Source: an uncultured Eubacteriales bacterium
GTDB lineage: Bacteria > Bacillota > Clostridia > Christensenellales > UBA1242
DNA length: 26,680 nucleotides
Reading direction: 5' to 3'
NCBI GenBank assembly: GCA_902796635.1
Contig: CADBPU010000005.1
Coordinates: forward strand, 1 to 26,680
Shown one piece after another: positions 1,414-26,680 of the stretch. Each line of letters begins with the position of its first letter. Position 1 is the stretch's first letter. Made by a program: the position numbers and the translations under genes. Below the pieces are notes generated by a model, which saw only the letters and a program-made list of their open reading frames with translations, made no database searches and was not told the DNA's origin.

Positions 1414-1890
1414 TTAAAAACCATTTAGGATAAGTGGGTATCCTATGTTAATTTCATTTTTATTGTAAGCAATTTGAGTATTAATTTTTTGATTATCTAC
1501 TATAACATAATTGGATAGTGATGAATTGTAGCATAACAAAGATTTGTAGCAATCAAAGTTCTCAACTTTAACACAAAAAGTAGAATATTTTTCAAGCAAC
1601 TTTTCAAGAGTTTTACTTTTATAATTTGATATTCTTACACTTTCGCCATAAATATCACTCAACTTACCTTTTACTGAATTTGCAAACTGCAAATCGCAAG
1701 CAACAATAGTATAATTTCCATTTTGTATTGTCTCGGCATTTTCTATATCATTTTCGACATGACTTGTATAAAAATAATATGTAGTTTTTTCTTGACTATC
1801 AATGTTCAAAACAGGTTTTGTTATTGGCACACACACAAAACAAAACACAGCCAAACAAAACACGGCAAATCTTAATCTCAATATTTTCAT
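1414..1890 (-). CDS. ywmB: YwmB/DUF1779-family (SpoIIT-like) exported or membrane-anchored protein
   Basis: N-terminal hydrophobic segment. C-terminus Y...L..Y......KIN.QIA......IGYPLILNGF resembles the YwmB end (N.qia....GtPii..Y). Conserved position upstream of the spoIIQ-spoIIID cluster. ATG 1890 is preferred over the TTG at 1908, which overlaps the predicted -10. Confidence 0.6.
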   Translation of the reverse strand: MKILRLRFAVFCLAVFCFVCVPITKPVLNIDSQEKTTYYFYTSHVENDIENAETIQNGNYTIVACDLQFANSVKGKLSDIYGESVRISNYKSKTLEKLLEKYSTFCVKVENFDCYKSLLCYNSSLSNYVIVDNQKINTQIAYNKNEINIGYPLILNGF

Positions 1891-1896
1891 AAAAAA

Positions 1897-1925
1897 AATT
1901 ATTGCCAATTTTATAAAATTTAAGC
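1897..1925 (-). promoter_or_regulatory. Putative sigma-F promoter of the ywmB-like gene
   Basis: GCTTA (1925-1921), 14 nt, GGCAATAATT (1906-1897). Both boxes match the sigma-F consensus exactly. Confidence 0.7.
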
Positions 1926-1938
1926 AATAATCTTTTTC

Positions 1939-3078
1939 TTAAAAATCAAAATTTAACAAACCACTACTATACATCAAACTCAAAAAGTTAGCATCTTTGA
2001 AAATATCTGGTTCCAAACACAATAAATTTGTAAACTGTATATCATTAATATTTGAAAATATATTATAGAAATAATCTATATCTTTTTCGGCAATTTGGCT
2101 TTTTATATATTTTTCAAAAACCATTTGAGTCTTTACATATTCCAAAAGTTTGTATCTAAATTCCTGCAACAAAAAATTGATTTTTGTGTCTGGCAATTCT
2201 TGCTGCCTAAAATTTGATATCTGCTTTGCCTGCAAAAGATAATCGGTGTGTTTTTGATAATCAACAGCATTTTTGAACTTTATTGTGTAATACTTGAAAA
2301 AGTTTTTTTCCAAAGATGATATAAGCAAAGAAAACACATATTTTGTTTCTATTATGTTTTTAGGTCTATTATATTTCTTATATAAATTTAATAGATTATC
2401 AAGCAAATTTGGGGAAATTTTTGCTTCATATATGCAATAAGAAAGATATATTTTACAGATTTCTATTACTGAATTTTTTGAAATATCATTGTTTGCGATA
2501 AAATTTTGCAAATCTTGCAATATCTTTTTTGAAACAGACAAGTCAACATCTTGTTTATTTTTTTGAAAAAACAAATTGTTTATTTTGTTTTGCAAAACAC
2601 AAAACGAAAGACTACTTATTTCTAATATTGCTCTTGATATAAATTCACCAAAATTAAACACATTATTTACAGAAAAAACTATACCCATTGGATAGTTGCA
2701 ATCTTTATAACACATTTCATCTGCAAAATAATAATTTTTGAAGCAAGAACTATCACAGATATTTGTAAGTGCAAAAATGTAAGGAATATTTTTTTGATAA
2801 CAAACGCTTTTGATTTTGTCAACGTCATGATTATTTACTGCGATAATACATGAAACATTGTCAATATCTTTTATGCTCTCTATATTGCGTTCAACTTGAA
2901 TTTTACACATTGCGTTTGACCTTAAACTGCTTATTTCTGCACCAAACTCAAAATATTTATCAATAACAATAATTGTTTGATACAAAAAATATTTTTCTAG
3001 CTCTCTTTTAAGTTCAATTTCAATATTATTAGACACATAGGCAAATTCAATGCCACTATTTACTATTTTTTCTGCCAT
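1939..3078 (-). CDS. Hypothetical protein; degenerate sn-glycerol-1-phosphate dehydrogenase (EgsA/AraM)-like
   Basis: Intact 379-aa ORF. Segments IIVIDKY, SCIIAVNNHDVDKIKSVCYQKNIPYIFALT, YPMGIV and C-terminal FLSLMYSSGLL follow the order of G1PDH motifs, but the Gly-rich NAD loop and His metal ligands are absent. Confidence 0.45.
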   Translation of the reverse strand: MAEKIVNSGIEFAYVSNNIEIELKRELEKYFLYQTIIVIDKYFEFGAEISSLRSNAMCKIQVERNIESIKDIDNVSCIIAVNNHDVDKIKSVCYQKNIPYIFALTNICDSSCFKNYYFADEMCYKDCNYPMGIVFSVNNVFNFGEFISRAILEISSLSFCVLQNKINNLFFQKNKQDVDLSVSKKILQDLQNFIANNDISKNSVIEICKIYLSYCIYEAKISPNLLDNLLNLYKKYNRPKNIIETKYVFSLLISSLEKNFFKYYTIKFKNAVDYQKHTDYLLQAKQISNFRQQELPDTKINFLLQEFRYKLLEYVKTQMVFEKYIKSQIAEKDIDYFYNIFSNINDIQFTNLLCLEPDIFKDANFLSLMYSSGLLNFDF

Positions 3079-3184
3079 AAAAAAATAGTATCATATATCT
3101 AAAAAATAAAATTAAAAGAAAATGTAAAATATTGTTGAAATTTGATAAATATTACAATCATTATAAAGAAAAAACACAAACAAA

Positions 3185-10766: not shown

Positions 10767-11666
10767 TTACTCTGCTTTGTAAGATACAAAACTTTTAAGT
10801 TTGTTTTCTGGTTTTATTACAACACCATCAACAATACAATGAGATGGCAAAACAACTCCATCACAAATTTTTGCATTGTTTTTGATTTGGCAAAAACTTT
10901 CAATAACTGCATTGTTACCAACAAATGAGTTTACTATTTCACTGTTTGTTATTGATGCACCATGCAAAATCACACTATCAGTAATTATATTATTTGAATT
11001 GATGATAACATCGTTTTCAATAACACTATGACCTTTTATTTGATTAAATGGCTTAATCACAGTGCCTTCGCCAATTTGACAATCTGCATCAATAAAAGTT
11101 GAAGTTGGGTCTTCAATAAAAACACCATTTTTCATAAAGTATGACAAAATTCTGTTGCGTAAAACTTCATTAACCATTGCAGTTTGCTTAAAGTTTAAGC
11201 ACGTCATAAAGTCTTCTTCTTCAAAATACTGCATTTGTGGGTTGAGTAAACTTTCAATTTGCATCAAATATTTTGTTTCAAAAACATAACCACGTGTAAG
11301 TTTAAGCACACTCAAACTTTTGATTTTGAAGTATTCCATGATTTGCAGAAAGTTTTTTCTTTGAAATAGTGGCGTATCACTAAAAAGCACCAAAGTGTAT
11401 TTGCAGTTTGTGTCCACAACTCTTTTAACAACAGGCAAAAAGTCATCGCCAAAGTTATATTCAGCATAGCAAATTTTTGTGTCATACACAGCATTTGCAA
11501 CCCATTCAAGCATAGTTTTTCCACAGAGTTTTATTTCAAAAGGATTAACATTTCCAAATGCTTTGTTTTTTACTTTCAAAATCACAGTGCAAACATCGTC
11601 ATTATTTTCAAGTTCTCTAAAATTTTGCACCATATCTTTTGTGCTTATTCCTTCCAATATTTCCAT
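10767..11666 (-). CDS. Truncated, degenerate GlmU-like protein (nucleotidyltransferase-fold remnant plus short left-handed beta-helix)
   Basis: CGKTMLEWV, LFSDTPL, GYVF and the GlmU-type linker LRNRI..FMKNGV.I.DP.STFID followed by hexapeptide repeats. Occupies the glmU position upstream of pth-mfd. Catalytic motifs are missing (see findings). Confidence 0.8.
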   Translation of the reverse strand: MEILEGISTKDMVQNFRELENNDDVCTVILKVKNKAFGNVNPFEIKLCGKTMLEWVANAVYDTKICYAEYNFGDDFLPVVKRVVDTNCKYTLVLFSDTPLFQRKNFLQIMEYFKIKSLSVLKLTRGYVFETKYLMQIESLLNPQMQYFEEEDFMTCLNFKQTAMVNEVLRNRILSYFMKNGVFIEDPTSTFIDADCQIGEGTVIKPFNQIKGHSVIENDVIINSNNIITDSVILHGASITNSEIVNSFVGNNAVIESFCQIKNNAKICDGVVLPSHCIVDGVVIKPENKLKSFVSYKAE

Positions 11667-11672
11667 GAATAT

Positions 11673-11701
11673 ATAATATATATAAATAAAAAAAAAGTCA
11701 A
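11673..11701 (-). promoter_or_regulatory. Sigma-A promoter of the glmU-like/pth/mfd operon
   Basis: TTGACT (11701-11696), 17 nt, TATTAT (11678-11673). ATG is 6 nt downstream. Confidence 0.7.
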
Positions 11702-17035: not shown

Positions 17036-17277
17036 TTAAAAAAATCGCCCTCACAAAAAATTGCAAGGGACGACTGAATAATCGCGATACCACCCTAATT
17101 GCCATAAAAATATGACCACTCATCATAAGCTTTGTGTGGGCTTGCTACCACTTGATATTTCTATCAAAAGCTCCTGCAAACGAAATTTCAAATTGATAGT
17201 TGCCACAAATGCTTCCAGCCGCGACATTTGCTCTCTTTTGGACACACAATTCTACTATATTTGCAATCATTGCTTGC
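17036..17277 (-). ncRNA. T-box riboswitch leader (Phe, UUC specifier) of pheST
   Basis: Minus strand stem I is closed by TGCAAA/TTTGCA and carries AGAGAG and GCTGGAA loops. Specifier GAAAT-TTC-G has UUC at 17184-17182. Stem II TTGATA-GAAA-TATCAA. T-box GGGTGGTATCGCG (17095-17083) can pair with CGTCCC. Terminator TCGTCCCTTGCAA...TTGTGAGGGCGA-T7 (17073-17038). Confidence 0.95.
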
Positions 17278-17283
17278 TTTTAT

Positions 17284-18293: not shown

Positions 18294-19607
18294 TTATTCA
18301 TTTTTTGTTTTGAACTCAATTTTGATTGGTGTACCAGATAAGTCAATGTTTCTTCTAAATGCATTTTCCAAATACCTTTGATAAGAAAAATGCACAAGCG
18401 AACTATCATTTGCCTGAATTGTAAAAACCGGTGGATTGAAACCAGTTTGACTGACAAAATAAAATTTCAATCTCTTGCCATATCTTGATGGTGGTTGACT
18501 TATGCTTACTGCATCTTGCAAAATTTCGTTCAATATGCTTGTTGACGTCTTTTTGCTTGCATTTTCATACGCCTTCAAGACTGCTGGCATCAAAGTGTTG
18601 AGTCTTTGACCTGTTTTTGCCGAAACAAATATTGGCATATAATAACTCATAAAATTTAATTCTTTATCCAATTTTTCTTTGTAAAAATTGATTGTGTGTT
18701 CGTCCTTATCAACCAAATCCCACTTGTTGATTACAACAACGCTTGGTTTGCCTTGCTCGTGTACATAACCAGCAATTCTAATGTCTTGGTCGCTCAAACC
18801 CTGGCTTGCATCAAACACAATAACAACAACGTCTGCTCGCCTTATTGCTTCCATACTGCGAAGTACAGAATAACTTTCAACACTTTCAAGTTCTATACTT
18901 CTCTTTCTTCTTATGCCTGCTGTATCAATCAAAATGCACTCTTTTCCATCAAAAACAAAAGGTGTGTCTATTGCATCTCTTGTTGTGCCTGCAACATTTG
19001 AAACAACCATTCTGCTTTCTCCAAGCAATTTGTTTGTTATACTGCTTTTGCCTGCATTTGGTTTGCCTACAATTGCAATTTTGATTTTATCTTTATTTTC
19101 TTCAAAATCAATTTCATCAAAGTGTTTTACTACAACGTCAAGTAGGTCGCCAACACCCTGACTATGCTCACTAGAAATTGGATATGGCTCACCAAGACCT
19201 AATGCATAAAACTCGTATAAGTTTTCCAAATAGTTGTTATCACATTTATTCACAGCCAAAACAACTGGCTTTTTTATTTTTTTAAGAAGTGTTGCAACTT
19301 CTTCATCTTGTGCAGTTAATCCAGCCATGCCGTCAACAAGCATTATGATAACATCAGCAAGTTCCATTGCAATTTGCACTTGATGCAAAATGTTTTTGTT
19401 TACTTCGGTCTTTTCATGAATATCAATACCACCAGTATCAACAAGCCAAAAGTTATGATTAAGCCACTCGGCATCTGCATAAATTCTATCTCTTGTGACG
19501 CCGGGTTCATCTTTTACTATACTAATTCTTTTGCCAACGACCTTATTAAAAAATGTACTTTTACCCACATTTGGTCTGCCAATTATTGCAACAATAGGTT
19601 TTTTCAT
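18294..19607 (-). CDS. der: Ribosome biogenesis GTPase Der (EngA)
   Basis: Two G domains (GRPNVGKST...DTGG; GKPNAGKSS...DTAG.RRK) and a KH-like C-terminus (GTPI). Confidence 0.98.
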   Translation of the reverse strand: MKKPIVAIIGRPNVGKSTFFNKVVGKRISIVKDEPGVTRDRIYADAEWLNHNFWLVDTGGIDIHEKTEVNKNILHQVQIAMELADVIIMLVDGMAGLTAQDEEVATLLKKIKKPVVLAVNKCDNNYLENLYEFYALGLGEPYPISSEHSQGVGDLLDVVVKHFDEIDFEENKDKIKIAIVGKPNAGKSSITNKLLGESRMVVSNVAGTTRDAIDTPFVFDGKECILIDTAGIRRKRSIELESVESYSVLRSMEAIRRADVVVIVFDASQGLSDQDIRIAGYVHEQGKPSVVVINKWDLVDKDEHTINFYKEKLDKELNFMSYYMPIFVSAKTGQRLNTLMPAVLKAYENASKKTSTSILNEILQDAVSISQPPSRYGKRLKFYFVSQTGFNPPVFTIQANDSSLVHFSYQRYLENAFRRNIDLSGTPIKIEFKTKNE

Positions 19608-19616
19608 AATGTTAAT

Positions 19617-19645
19617 ATTTTAACATAACAAAACGAATTTAGCAA
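19617..19645 (-). promoter_or_regulatory. Sigma-A promoter of der-plsY
   Basis: TTGCTA (19645-19640), 17 nt, extended TGnTAAAAT (-10 at 19622-19617). Confidence 0.65.
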
Positions 19646-19666: not shown

Positions 19667-21838
19667 TTATAAATGTTGTTTTTTGTCGCAATTTTTGTTT
19701 GCTGGACAAAATTTGCAATATCTTTTATGTTTGATAATGCCAAATATAAAAAATATAAACACACAAATCAAAGTAAACACAATTATTGAAACAATGCCAC
19801 TCAAAACTCCATTAAAGATAAAATAATTTGCAATTTTATACACCACAAAACTCAAAGCATAACTAATCGCAAATTGCAACAGACAAGCAAAAAGTGTCCA
19901 CTTTCTGCCAATTTCTTTAATCATAACGCTAACAGTTGAAATACATGGCAAATATAATAGTGCAAATACCAAAAAAGATAAACTGCTACTTGCAGTCAAA
20001 CAAAATGCACTTGTTGATAGTAGCAAACTGTTTGAAATTTGATTTAGGCCACCCGTCCCATCAAGCCCGTTGATTATACCAATTGTGCTGACAATTATTT
20101 CTTTTGCAACAAAACCACAAAGTATTGCACTGACTGCCCCAGCAGTTCCAAAACCAAGTGGGGAGAAAATTGGCGATAAAAAATTTGAAAGTGTTTCAAG
20201 CATACTTTCACCCACATGATACTGAAACCTAAAATTGCAATTTTGAAGTATCCAAACAATGCAAGAAAAACCGAGCAAAACACTACCTGCACGAAGCAAA
20301 AATTGCTTTGCATTATAATAAACATTTTTTGAAATCTTTTTGAAATTTGGAATTCTATACTTTGGCAACTCCATAACAAAAGTTGTTTCATTACTTTTTA
20401 GAATTGTTTTATTCAAAAAATAACTAACACATAGTGCAACAACAACGCCCAAAACATACAAAAAAATTATTATAAGCACTTTGAACTTTGGAAAAAATGC
20501 ATTGCAAATAATCAAATATAATGGCAGTTTTGCTGTGCAACTGATATATGGTGTTAACATCGCAGTTTTTATTTTACTGTTTTTATTTTCTAAATTTCTG
20601 CTTGAAAGTGTTGCAGTTGTGCTACAACCAAAACTCATAAGTAGCGCAAAAATGCTTTTGCCAGACAGTCCCAATTTTTTCAAAAAATCTTCAAAAATAA
20701 AAGCAACACGAGACATATAGCCACTATCTTCCAAAATGTAAAGTCCCAAAAACATAAGAATGACTTGTGGCAGAAAGGAAAACAATGAAACGACAGAACC
20801 ACAAAAAGCATTGGAGATAAAATCAGCAACAAACTGATTGCTAATTTTGTTTTGAGCAAAACTAGAAAGTGGGCTCAACATCAGTTCTGCAAAATTAGAT
20901 AATGTACCCGAGAGCATTGTTCCAAAACTGCCAAATGTAAAGAAAAATAGACCTGCAATAATTACAAAAAAAATAGGAAAACAAAGCCATTTGTTTAAGC
21001 AATATTTATCTATTTTTGAATAACCATAAATTTTGTTGTTATCTTTTGAAACACAGTTCGATAAAAATTTTTTAATGATAATAAATCTCAAATTTATCAC
21101 TTTTTCTAATGTATTATTTTTTTCTAATATATTTATTATGTCATTTTTTTCTTTATCTGTAATTTTTAGTTTTGATATTACGCTCTCATCTTGCTCTAAA
21201 ATCTTTATTTTTTCAAATATTGATAAATTAAAGTTTTGATTATATTTTGGCAAGTAATCACTGAACATATCTTGTAAATCAGTAATATATGAAAATATGT
21301 CTATATGAGAATAAGTATCAATTTTGTTTGTTTCATTTTTTTCTTTTTTATCATTTGTGTTTTTTACTGCATAATTCAAAACTTCTTTGCTCTCTTTTTT
21401 GTTTTGTGCATTGATAAAAAAACATTTTAGCCCCAATTCTTTTTCAAACTTTTCTTTATCAATTTTAAGTCCATTTTTTACAAATTCATTTGCCATATTC
21501 ACACAAACAATGGGACGGATTCCCATTTCAACCAGTTCAAAAGTAAGTAGCAAATTTCTTTCCAGATTATTGCCATCAATAATGTTTATGACTTCACAAT
21601 CTTTGTGAGTTAATAAATATTCCTTTGTAACTCCTTCTTCAAAACTAAATGGGGAAAGCGAATATGTGCCAGGTAAATCTGTTATTACAATTTCTTGACC
21701 ATCAAACTTTATTCTCTTTTCTTTGTAATCTGTTGTAACGCCATGCCAGTTGCCAACATGTTCTTCTGCATTTGAAAAAATAAAAAAAAAAGTGGATTTA
21801 CCAGTATTTGGATTGCCAACAAGCACTATATATTTCAT
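19667..21838 (-). CDS. feoB: Ferrous iron transporter B
   Basis: GNPNTGKS, VGNW.GVT, DLPGTYSL, NLERNL. Membrane part has LEDSGYM.R.AF, FGC, SC.AKLP.Y, FVMELP.Y..P, AKE..VST, LY.PC. C-terminal Cys motif. Confidence 0.95.
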   Translation of the reverse strand: MKYIVLVGNPNTGKSTFFFIFSNAEEHVGNWHGVTTDYKEKRIKFDGQEIVITDLPGTYSLSPFSFEEGVTKEYLLTHKDCEVINIIDGNNLERNLLLTFELVEMGIRPIVCVNMANEFVKNGLKIDKEKFEKELGLKCFFINAQNKKESKEVLNYAVKNTNDKKEKNETNKIDTYSHIDIFSYITDLQDMFSDYLPKYNQNFNLSIFEKIKILEQDESVISKLKITDKEKNDIINILEKNNTLEKVINLRFIIIKKFLSNCVSKDNNKIYGYSKIDKYCLNKWLCFPIFFVIIAGLFFFTFGSFGTMLSGTLSNFAELMLSPLSSFAQNKISNQFVADFISNAFCGSVVSLFSFLPQVILMFLGLYILEDSGYMSRVAFIFEDFLKKLGLSGKSIFALLMSFGCSTTATLSSRNLENKNSKIKTAMLTPYISCTAKLPLYLIICNAFFPKFKVLIIIFLYVLGVVVALCVSYFLNKTILKSNETTFVMELPKYRIPNFKKISKNVYYNAKQFLLRAGSVLLGFSCIVWILQNCNFRFQYHVGESMLETLSNFLSPIFSPLGFGTAGAVSAILCGFVAKEIIVSTIGIINGLDGTGGLNQISNSLLLSTSAFCLTASSSLSFLVFALLYLPCISTVSVMIKEIGRKWTLFACLLQFAISYALSFVVYKIANYFIFNGVLSGIVSIIVFTLICVFIFFIFGIIKHKRYCKFCPANKNCDKKQHL

Positions 21839-22071
21839 AATTCAATCTCCACTTCTATACTTTTTAATATACTTCTTCTCAAACAAAGAGAATAATTTTT
21901 TAATGCAATCAAATAACTGTTTTTTAGTGGTGAAATGGATAGCACCTTCACCATTTGACCCGTGATTAATCCAAGTTCCAAAAGTCGTCTTTTGATACGT
22001 ACGTCTGCACTTAAATTTATTATTTTGCCAACTTCCCCCGTTTTCAAATCACTCATTTTTTTTGTAATCAT
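21835..22071 (-). CDS. feoA: Ferrous iron transport protein A
   Basis: SH3-like M.DL..G..G.I......RRLLELGL..G..V.V....PL.....I...LRR. Overlaps the feoB start by 4 nt. ATG 22071 (SD GGAG) preferred over 22089. Confidence 0.92.
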   Translation of the reverse strand: MITKKMSDLKTGEVGKIINLSADVRIKRRLLELGLITGQMVKVLSISPLKNSYLIALKNYSLCLRRSILKSIEVEIEL

Positions 22072-22101
22072 AACACTCCAATATTTCATTATATTTTACT
22101 T

Positions 22102-22631: not shown

Positions 22632-22725
22632 CAAAACTTATTTTTGTACACAAAAAGATATAACACGTCAAAAAAAAGCAAAGTTTTTACTAACATAATT
22701 TGAAATGCTGTTTTAATATATTTAT

Positions 22726-23556
22726 GTGGTTATTTATGTCGAGTATATTGTGATAGACAACATGGTTATTGATGTACTAATACTTCTTTTAACCAAATCT
22801 ATGCTAAAAATAAATACTAAAAAAATCTTTATATTTTTGAGTGCATTTTTAGGAACTATTATCGCATTGATATCACCATTATTAAATAGCACAATCAACA
22901 TTATAATAAAGATACCTCTATCAATATGCATGGTTATGATTTGCTACCATCCAAAAAAAATAAAACTATTTTTTGCAGAACTTTTGGGCTTTTATATCTC
23001 AACTTTTGTTTTGATTGGTGCTTGCCTTGGTATTTGTGAAATGCTGGGCATAAAATATATCATTTCAAATGGCGTTTCTTATGAATATAACTTTCCCGTT
23101 GGCTTTGTGCTTGTTGTTTGCGCTGTGATGTTTGTAGGTATAAAAAATATAATAAAACTCGTTTCAATAATTCACAAAAATGATAAATACATATATCAAA
23201 TAACACTAATAGAAAATGATAAATCAATAAAAATTTCAGCATTTTTAGATACAGGCAACAAGTTGATTTTTAACAATAAACCAATATCAATAATAAACTA
23301 CAAAACATTTGAAAAACTATACCCTTCAATTTTGCTTATGGATATATTATTAAAAAAACAACTACCACTAAAAAACTCTACATATTTTGAAATCAAAAGT
23401 TTAGGAAATCCACAAAAGATATTAATTTTTGAAATTGAAAAAATTGTTATAGACAAAAGAGAAATAAATAACCCACTTGTTGGATTATCACTAGAAAACT
23501 TTGAAAAGCAAACGCACAGCGACATGATTATTTCATCAAATTTGTTAGGAGAATAA
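22726..23556 (+). CDS. spoIIGA: Pro-sigma-E processing aspartic protease
   Basis: Begins IYVEYIVIDNM..D. Five or more TM segments, catalytic AFLDTGN.L and P..I. Immediately upstream of sigE. Confidence 0.92.
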   Translation: MVIYVEYIVIDNMVIDVLILLLTKSMLKINTKKIFIFLSAFLGTIIALISPLLNSTINIIIKIPLSICMVMICYHPKKIKLFFAELLGFYISTFVLIGACLGICEMLGIKYIISNGVSYEYNFPVGFVLVVCAVMFVGIKNIIKLVSIIHKNDKYIYQITLIENDKSIKISAFLDTGNKLIFNNKPISIINYKTFEKLYPSILLMDILLKKQLPLKNSTYFEIKSLGNPQKILIFEIEKIVIDKREINNPLVGLSLENFEKQTHSDMIISSNLLGE

Positions 23557-26236: not shown

Positions 26237-26266
26237 AAAAAATCAAGGTAAAAACCTTGATTTTTT
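26237..26266. terminator. Bidirectional terminator between convergent sigG and the DnaC-like gene
   Basis: AAAAAATCAAGGT-AAAA-ACCTTGATTTTTT. Confidence 0.88.
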
Positions 26267-26295
26267 ATGTTTTTTTGCTTATTTTTTATTGATTT

Positions 26296-26680
26296 TTATT
26301 TTTTTAGTCTATTATTCTTTCCCTTAAACTCTAAAATAAGAGAAGAACGTTTGTTGAATATTCTAGAAAAAATTCTTTCTTCGTACTTTGAAAGTACTTG
26401 TTCAGGACTTAAATTACTCGTTATTATTGTTGACTTTTGTTTTGTTATTCTTTCATTCAAAAGAAGTAATAAGTATTCTTTTGTAACATTCTTTCTTATA
26501 GGTTCTGTGCCAAGGTCATCAATAATCAAACAATCAGTGTCAATCAAACTTTTTAGATGCTCTTTTTGTTCCAAACTTGAAAGGTGGTCTTCTAAAAACA
26601 TATTGTTCATATCAAAAGCGCTCAAAAACAAAGTTGTGTATCCTCTTGAAACAAGTTCTTTTGCAAGGCATCTTGTGAGA
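26296..26680 (-). CDS. DnaC/IstB-like AAA+ ATP-binding protein, probable helicase loader (partial; 5' end off the window)
   Basis: The frame is open to the window edge (LTRCLAKELVSRGYTTLFLSA...). Walker B LIIDDLGTE, LLNER...KSTIITSNL, YEERIFSRI. Walker A lies just outside the window. Confidence 0.85.
   Translation of the reverse strand, partial: LTRCLAKELVSRGYTTLFLSAFDMNNMFLEDHLSSLEQKEHLKSLIDTDCLIIDDLGTEPIRKNVTKEYLLLLLNERITKQKSTIITSNLSPEQVLSKYEERIFSRIFNKRSSLILEFKGKNNRLKK

Follow-up and report, generated by a model that had tools for sequence, protein, structure and literature searches.

Promoter boxes six nucleotides before start codons suggest leaderless mRNAs at many operon-leading genes in a small-genome lineage of Clostridia

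In the genome of an uncultured Eubacteriales bacterium, far more genes than chance would give have a -10 promoter box that ends exactly 6 nt ahead of the start codon (offset 6), and these elements are very probably promoters fused to start codons, with an mRNA that would begin at the ATG itself. Half of the operon-leading genes that lack a Shine-Dalgarno (SD) sequence are accounted for by this layout (55 of 110, the box being absent in the other 55). Roughly 50 genes above background have it, which is about 12% of the approximately 423 operon-leading genes and 6-8% of all genes, the 12% being approximate because gene and operon calls were home-made. The original prediction, that this lineage uses leaderless initiation for many operon-leading genes, is supported by that share, by the conservation of the layout among orthologues and by its taxonomic distribution, while the position of transcription start and the mechanism of translation at these genes are what we infer from sequence patterns. 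The phenomenon is not new, as leaderless genes with an extended -10 box are already known in some Firmicutes (Lactococcus/Streptococcus, Mycoplasma; PMC3160421); the most interesting observations here are switches between SD-led and leaderless starts within one genus and an apparent leaderless promoter of forespore-sigma type.

The source genome (869 kb in 120 contigs, 31% GC, estimated 86% complete) is one of the small-genome Clostridia of gut and rumen, and the family to which it belongs (f1) has genome sizes of 0.8-1.3 Mb. The window, by which we mean the whole stretch of DNA analyzed (26,680 nt), is a complete 26.7-kb contig (C5). The genes on it encode a SpoIIQ-like M23 peptidase, two proteins without assigned function, a flippase-like protein, Mfd, Pth, a truncated GlmU-like protein, TadA, a flavoprotein, PheST with a T-box in front, PlsY, Der, FeoAB, YlmC, SpoIIGA-SigE, DegV and SigG. 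The closest named records to it are metagenome-assembled genomes (MAGs) of uncultured Clostridia, one of them from reindeer. A 1.4-kb stretch across der was traced to bovine, sheep and other animal gut metagenomes and to rumen; all 24 runs of any kind listed for it are DNA metagenomes, for the most part of animal gut, 20 of which contain part of the stretch, and no RNA run was among the sequencing runs listed as matching a 9.8-kb stretch of the window.

For the genome-wide statistics, 744 genes were called with a codon-usage model and the SD was scored at each candidate start. Automatic start picking went wrong for some genes (pth and a 585-aa gene among them), so we based the statistics on the first candidate start or on counts of patterns only. 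In 43 of 698 genes (about 43-44 of 690), the extended box TGnTAnnnT had its end at offset 6 relative to the first start, as against a mean of 3.65 and a maximum of 9 at the other 40 offsets and 0-4 at offsets 0-10 besides 6 (Poisson p about 1e-30 for 43). Among genes lacking an SD, TANNNT stood at offset 6 in 35-39 of 124-130 and at other offsets in about 6-7, and 300 dinucleotide shuffles of the SD-less genes gave 6.7 +/- 2.5 with a maximum of 15, versus 35 of 124 observed. When gene calls were left aside altogether, TGNTAWAAT-N6-ATG was found at 39 sites, 35 of them opening a reading frame of at least 60 codons; with N3, N4, N5 or N11 before the ATG, 0 of 4-15 sites opened such a frame, and N7-N10 gave 3-4 each. 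A genome-wide comparison with shuffled sequence had been proposed for boxes at 6-8 nt; the enrichment proved to be confined to offset 6, which lies far above chance, with no excess at 7-9 taken as a class. An additional TANNNT peak at offset 11 was considered as a second class and ruled out, being the shadow of a 'TA-TGa-T' that overlaps the extended -10 of offset-6 promoters.

The layout is concentrated at the first genes of operons. Of the 423 operon-leading genes, 68 had TANNNT at offset 6, against a background of 18, versus 7 of 193 internal genes, and its extended TG form preceded 2 of the 193. The 68 leading genes comprise 55 with no SD, 11 with a weak one and 2 with an SD. Among the 211 SD-led genes in leading position, the box was present at offset 6 in 2; internal operon genes are SD-led in 154 of 193 cases. 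Intergenic length had no link to the layout (medians 116 vs 122 nt, p = 0.41).

Sigma-70-type polymerases initiate about 7 nt past the last base of the -10 box. Where TANNNT stood at offset 6 (82 genes), a -35 TTG was found with a spacer of 17 nt in 28 and of 16 nt in 15, and TG stood one base before the box (-15/-14) in 43. Among the 43 strongest cases, the base at -1 was T in 24, C in 16, A in 3 and never G (pyrimidine in 40 of 43), with C at 4% across positions -6 to -2, and the start codon was ATG in all but one. This pyrimidine(-1)/purine(+1) pattern is a signature of transcription start sites (TSSs). In the mechanism we propose, a sigma-A promoter with a -35 element TTGaca, a 16-17-nt spacer usually ending in TGn, and a -10 element TAtAAT would direct RNA polymerase to the seventh base after the -10, the A of the ATG. 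The resulting mRNA would have neither 5' UTR nor SD, and its translation would follow the leaderless route: a ribosome carrying initiator tRNA binds the 5'-terminal AUG directly. Additional upstream promoters may yield leadered transcripts of the same genes.

The same boxes could be real promoters whose transcripts are not strictly leaderless, either through loose TSS choice that leaves 1-4-nt leaders or through extra upstream promoters with longer SD-less leaders translated by another SD-independent route. We consider this unlikely, although several observations fit it: the -10 box of der lies at 9 nt and is conserved in five genomes of the genus, TGNTAWAAT-N7 to N10-ATG does open long reading frames (3-4 cases each vs 0 for N3-5), 55 of the 110 SD-less operon-leading genes carry no offset-6 box, and in C. 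phytofermentans the potentially leaderless genes generally have a further upstream TSS (PMC5171806). The peak at a single offset, ATG in 42 of 43 cases and the pyrimidine at -1 are nevertheless what would be expected for a selected 5'-terminal AUG, and none of them is needed in a leadered mRNA. A quite different possibility is that the mRNA has a leader and that the TA-rich element within it, not a promoter at all, binds the ribosome or enhances translation independently of an SD, as in genomes of the Bacteroidetes type (GeneMarkS-2 group B). The box is indeed AT-rich and sits where a ribosome-binding site would, but a -35 TTG is found at a spacing of 16-17 nt, TG stands one base before the box, the SD-led genes of the same genome have a canonical GGAGG, and the near absence of the box at internal genes (7 of 193; extended form, 2 of 193) contrasts with the group B motif, which precedes internal genes too (PMC6028130); we regard this reading as very improbable.

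Chance or artefact is the explanation to which we give the least credence, namely that TATAAT-like hexamers are frequent at 31% GC, that starts were wrongly placed, or that an in-frame TAA or TAG falls 12 nt upstream. TANNNT does occupy about 5% of upstream positions, hexamers with two mismatches had been accepted in the original prediction, and a rule of taking the first start after a stop could enrich for TAA or TAG at -12, where they are stops in frame. Against this, the offsets show no period-3 pattern, with neither 3 nor 9 enriched; TAT is found in half of the boxes; counting by pattern alone is free of gene calls; 146 other Clostridia have an N6/N8 ratio of about 0.65; and relatives have conserved N-termini. 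Occurrence of -10-like hexamers at the same rate in controls had been named in advance as an outcome that would overturn the prediction; the shuffles, with their maximum of 15 against 35, never attained the observed value. Promoters fused to start codons, with transcripts beginning at the ATG, remain the reading we prefer and follow below.

Within the window, direct inspection of the sequence located all five promoter/start strings that had been quoted, each at the coordinates given for it (Table 1), and the five starts lack an SD both by motif and by anti-SD duplex energy (-2.2 or weaker at each). The remaining genes are SD-led as claimed, with GGAG, GAGG, AGGA or GGTG at the usual distance, feoA qualifying only at its second ATG. 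In that gene (21835-22089, minus strand) the first ATG (22089) has neither an SD nor an offset-6 box, GGAG lies 4 nt upstream of the second (22071), which is probably the true start, and the overlap of feoA with feoB is 4 nt.

Table 1. Predicted promoter and start arrangements of five genes in the 26,680-nt window
Gene	Gene coordinates	Promoter-start region	Strand	Layout	Promoter type	SD
glmU-like	10767-11666	11664-11701	-	TTGACT (11701-11696)-17-TATTAT (11678-11673)-6-ATG (11666-11664)	sigma-A	none
379-aa gene	1939-3078	3076-3093	-	extended -10 TGaTACTAT (3093-3085)-6-ATG (3078-3076); no clear -35		none
ywmB-like	1414-1890	1888-1925	-	GCTTA (1925-1921)-14-GGCAATAAT (1906-1898)-7 T-ATG (1890-1888)	sigma-F/G-like	
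der/engA	18294-19607	19605-19645	-	TTGCTA (19645-19640)-17 (ending TGt)-TAAAAT (19622-19617)-9-ATG (19607-19605)	sigma-A	none
spoIIGA	22726-23556	22714-22728	+	TAATAT (22714-22719)-6-GTG (22726)		none

The glmU-like gene, which is conserved in the genus and leads a pth-mfd cluster, has a predicted leaderless start. Its layout, TTGACT-17-TATnAT-6-ATG, is kept together with an MEI/MEV N-terminus in G003, G004 and G006, and the version in G007 reads TTGACA-17-TAAAAT-6-ATG, while the same methionine has an SD in front in G005 (AAGGAG), G010 (AAGGAA), G012 (AGGGGG) and G008 (GGAGGGG). The names 'glmU-like' and 'ywmB-like' fared less well, neither having a full family match behind it: the 299-aa GlmU-like protein aligned to GlmU models through the left-handed beta-helix part only (residues 150-290 to profile positions 218-357), far under the family cut-offs, with no family match for its first 150 residues, and a profile search gave no family match for the ywmB-like product, a small predicted membrane or secreted protein. 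Similarly, the 379-aa gene has no match in Pfam or NCBIfam. Each of the five genus genomes with this gene (G000, G003, G004, G005 and G006) has TGnTAnnnT-6-ATG at its start. Its orthologues share a conserved MA(E/K/D) N-terminus, with an in-frame stop 9-51 nt upstream.

At the ywmB-like gene, a sigma-F box 6 nt before the ATG had been described. A pair of boxes of this type is conserved, with G(C/T)T(T/A)A-14/15-GGCAATA(A/T)T-T6-8-ATG kept in six genus genomes (GTG in G005) while the spacer diverges. The gap before the ATG at 1890 consists of 7 T, and the gene does not belong to the enriched offset-6 sigma-A class. The start at 1890 was confirmed, because a TTG at 1908 falls within the -10 box and is not a start; in the G004 orthologue, the ATG behind the T-run is the sole start candidate. 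The two boxes, 14-15 nt apart, resemble the B. subtilis sigma-F/G consensus (GYATA ... GGnnAnAnT). The gene is probably read by a forespore sigma factor, not by sigma-A.

For der, a -10 box and an SD-less start were confirmed and are conserved in the genus, with TTG(C/T)(T/C)A-17-TGnTA(A/C)AAT-9-ATG in five of the six genomes that possess the gene, but an offset of 9 departs from a strictly leaderless start and corresponds to a predicted 3-nt leader (AUU-AUG). We therefore describe it as a predicted near-leaderless variant, for which the support is conservation and not the genome-wide statistic, since that statistic shows no excess for the class of offsets 7-9. Although the 9-nt spacers diverge among the genus genomes, a purine (A or G) always occupies the seventh place and TT the final two. 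Position 1 of the Der profile aligns with residue 4, and der is SD-led in G005 and most other members of the family.

The spoIIGA start is predicted to be leaderless on a GUG, with position 1 of the SpoIIGA profile aligning with residue 1 and an N-terminus, M/V-x-(I/V)-Y-(V/I)-E-Y, that is conserved in leaderless-type and SD-led relatives alike. Leaderless-type arrangements are found in G002 (TATCAT-6-ATG), G004 (TATGAT-6-ATG), G009 (TATACT-6-ATG) and G010 (TAAAAT-6-ATG) as well as in G000 with its GTG; an SD-bearing leader is present in G001, G003, G006, G007 and G012. The GTG is atypical, the 43 strongest offset-6 cases comprising 42 ATG, 1 TTG and 0 GTG. A block 5' of the promoter (22660-22700, plus strand; L036/L037), gtcaaaaa.aagcaaagttttt/cacta, is conserved in G000 and G002 and partly in G004, with diverging flanks, and could be an activator site of Spo0A type.

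Elsewhere in the genome, 20 of the strongest candidates were scanned against Pfam. They include AddB, RNase R, RecN, a uracil/xanthine permease, RsmF, MgsA/RarA, an amidohydrolase, a MiaB-like radical SAM enzyme, Tgt, a phosphopentomutase-type metalloenzyme, a class-V aminotransferase, an SPFH protein, HolA, a release-factor-domain protein and a PP-loop ATPase. Almost all of the 43 genes with the extended box at offset 6 are operon-leading, and many offset-6 genes have housekeeping or low-abundance functions. Pfam profiles begin at residues 1-6 in the cysteine desulfurase-like, MiaB-like and RecN-like proteins and the metalloenzyme, which supports those starts. One candidate (L071; G000:C84:3506-4429, minus strand) encodes 307 aa with a match to the RF-1 (GGQ) domain only and no PCRF domain at E <= 1e-8, and is short for a class-I release factor.

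The distribution of the trait was followed by counting TGNTAWAATN6ATG (P6) against an N8 control (P8) in whole genomes. The genus gave 202/53 (ratio 3.8), and high values were also seen in the family genomes G011 (36/9), G015 (37/11), G016 (17/3) and G009 (17/4), but not in G012 (12/20), G018 (12/24) or G007 (13/14). In a class-wide sample, five genomes of the family had ratios of 2.5-10, whereas 146 other Clostridia summed to 1725/2653 with a median ratio of 0.65, and 4 of the 146 reached 2.5. The layout is thus a lineage trait and not a general property of AT-rich Clostridia. Orthologues in the genus share the start codon and the -10 offset while their spacers have diverged, and some relatives carry an SD there instead. 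By these comparisons, the layout is inherited within the genus and is widespread yet patchy in the small-genome family, and leaderless and SD-led arrangements appear to interconvert at the same start codon over short evolutionary distances.

In GeneMarkS-2 group C, of which Mycobacterium tuberculosis and Deinococcus deserti are examples, first operon genes have a Pribnow box 6-8 nt ahead of the start codon and 25-50% of operons are leaderless; only 36 of 1064 Firmicutes fell in this group (PMC6028130). The present genome is similar in having an offset-6 Pribnow box at SD-less first genes and an SD at other genes, but the share of operon-leading genes is about 12% (an estimate from our own gene calls), and, unlike the TAnnnT of high-GC group C genomes, the boxes of this low-GC genome have a full TAtAAT, a strong TGn and a visible -35. 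Zheng et al. (2011) found that 56 of 209 Firmicutes genomes have leaderless genes, which make up 2.4-16.6% of genes; they are concentrated in Lactobacillales (Lactococcus-Streptococcus, Oenococcus-Leuconostoc) and Mycoplasma, and not in Clostridia, and have a TGnTAtAAT box (PMC3160421). Our 6-8% of genes lies inside that range, and TGnTAtAAT at a fixed distance from the start is shared with those cases, but the organism here is a spore-forming member of Clostridia, with spoIIGA and a forespore-promoter gene among the cases. Within the same class, a TSS map of C. difficile lists 15 candidate leaderless genes (PMC7438776), and 4% of intergenic TSSs in C. phytofermentans are potentially leaderless, at genes that mostly keep a ribosome-binding site and another TSS (PMC5171806). 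These two species share with our genome the sigma-A promoter consensus and a canonical SD for most genes, but leaderless mRNAs are rare in them. A literature search on leaderless starts in Clostridia MAGs, with Shine-Dalgarno as topic, found no publication.

If the layout acts as we propose, it would add a spore-forming, low-GC, reduced-genome lineage of Clostridia, a class in which leaderless mRNAs are rare where they have been mapped experimentally, to the substantial users of such mRNAs. In these MAGs, gene finders that expect an SD would overlook such starts or put them in the wrong place, as with the TTG at 1908 inside a promoter box, and the switches at the glmU-like gene, der and spoIIGA within the genus offer natural experiments on the replacement of one initiation mode by the other. 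If transcription from the forespore-type promoter does begin at the AUG, the housekeeping sigma factor would not be a requirement for leaderless expression. More speculatively, and at odds that we judge to be rather against it, leaderless initiation in this reduced-genome family could be an actively evolving alternative to the SD, in which orthologous starts flip within a genus and which extends to developmental genes and a forespore-sigma promoter, and which may tie to changes in the translation apparatus such as the seeming absence of a multi-domain bS1 homologue. All other families of the order have a multi-domain bS1-like protein (TIGR00717, matched over about 330 profile positions), as do the family genomes G009, G011, G014 and G018; it was not found in any of the seven genus genomes (70-97% complete, so that absence is not proven) nor in most of the family, and the genus and most of the family have only single S1-domain matches, in reading frames of about 720 aa. 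As a correlate of the leaderless signal, this absence was not clean and was set aside, the protein being present in the high-ratio G009 and G011 and absent from the low-ratio G007 and G012.

Two further features of the window were noted. At its right end (26240-26680), a terminator-like hairpin with a T-run (caaggtaaaaaccttg-tttttt) lies directly 5' of the ATG of an open-ended reading frame at 26267 that lacks an SD; a minus-strand frame (26296-26631), coding by the codon-usage model, overlaps it, and the gene call there is uncertain. Upstream of pheS, a T-box leader (17063-17279, minus strand; Rfam RF00230, 99.7 bits) occupies the 363-nt gap, indicating that the genome retains long regulatory leaders where they are needed.
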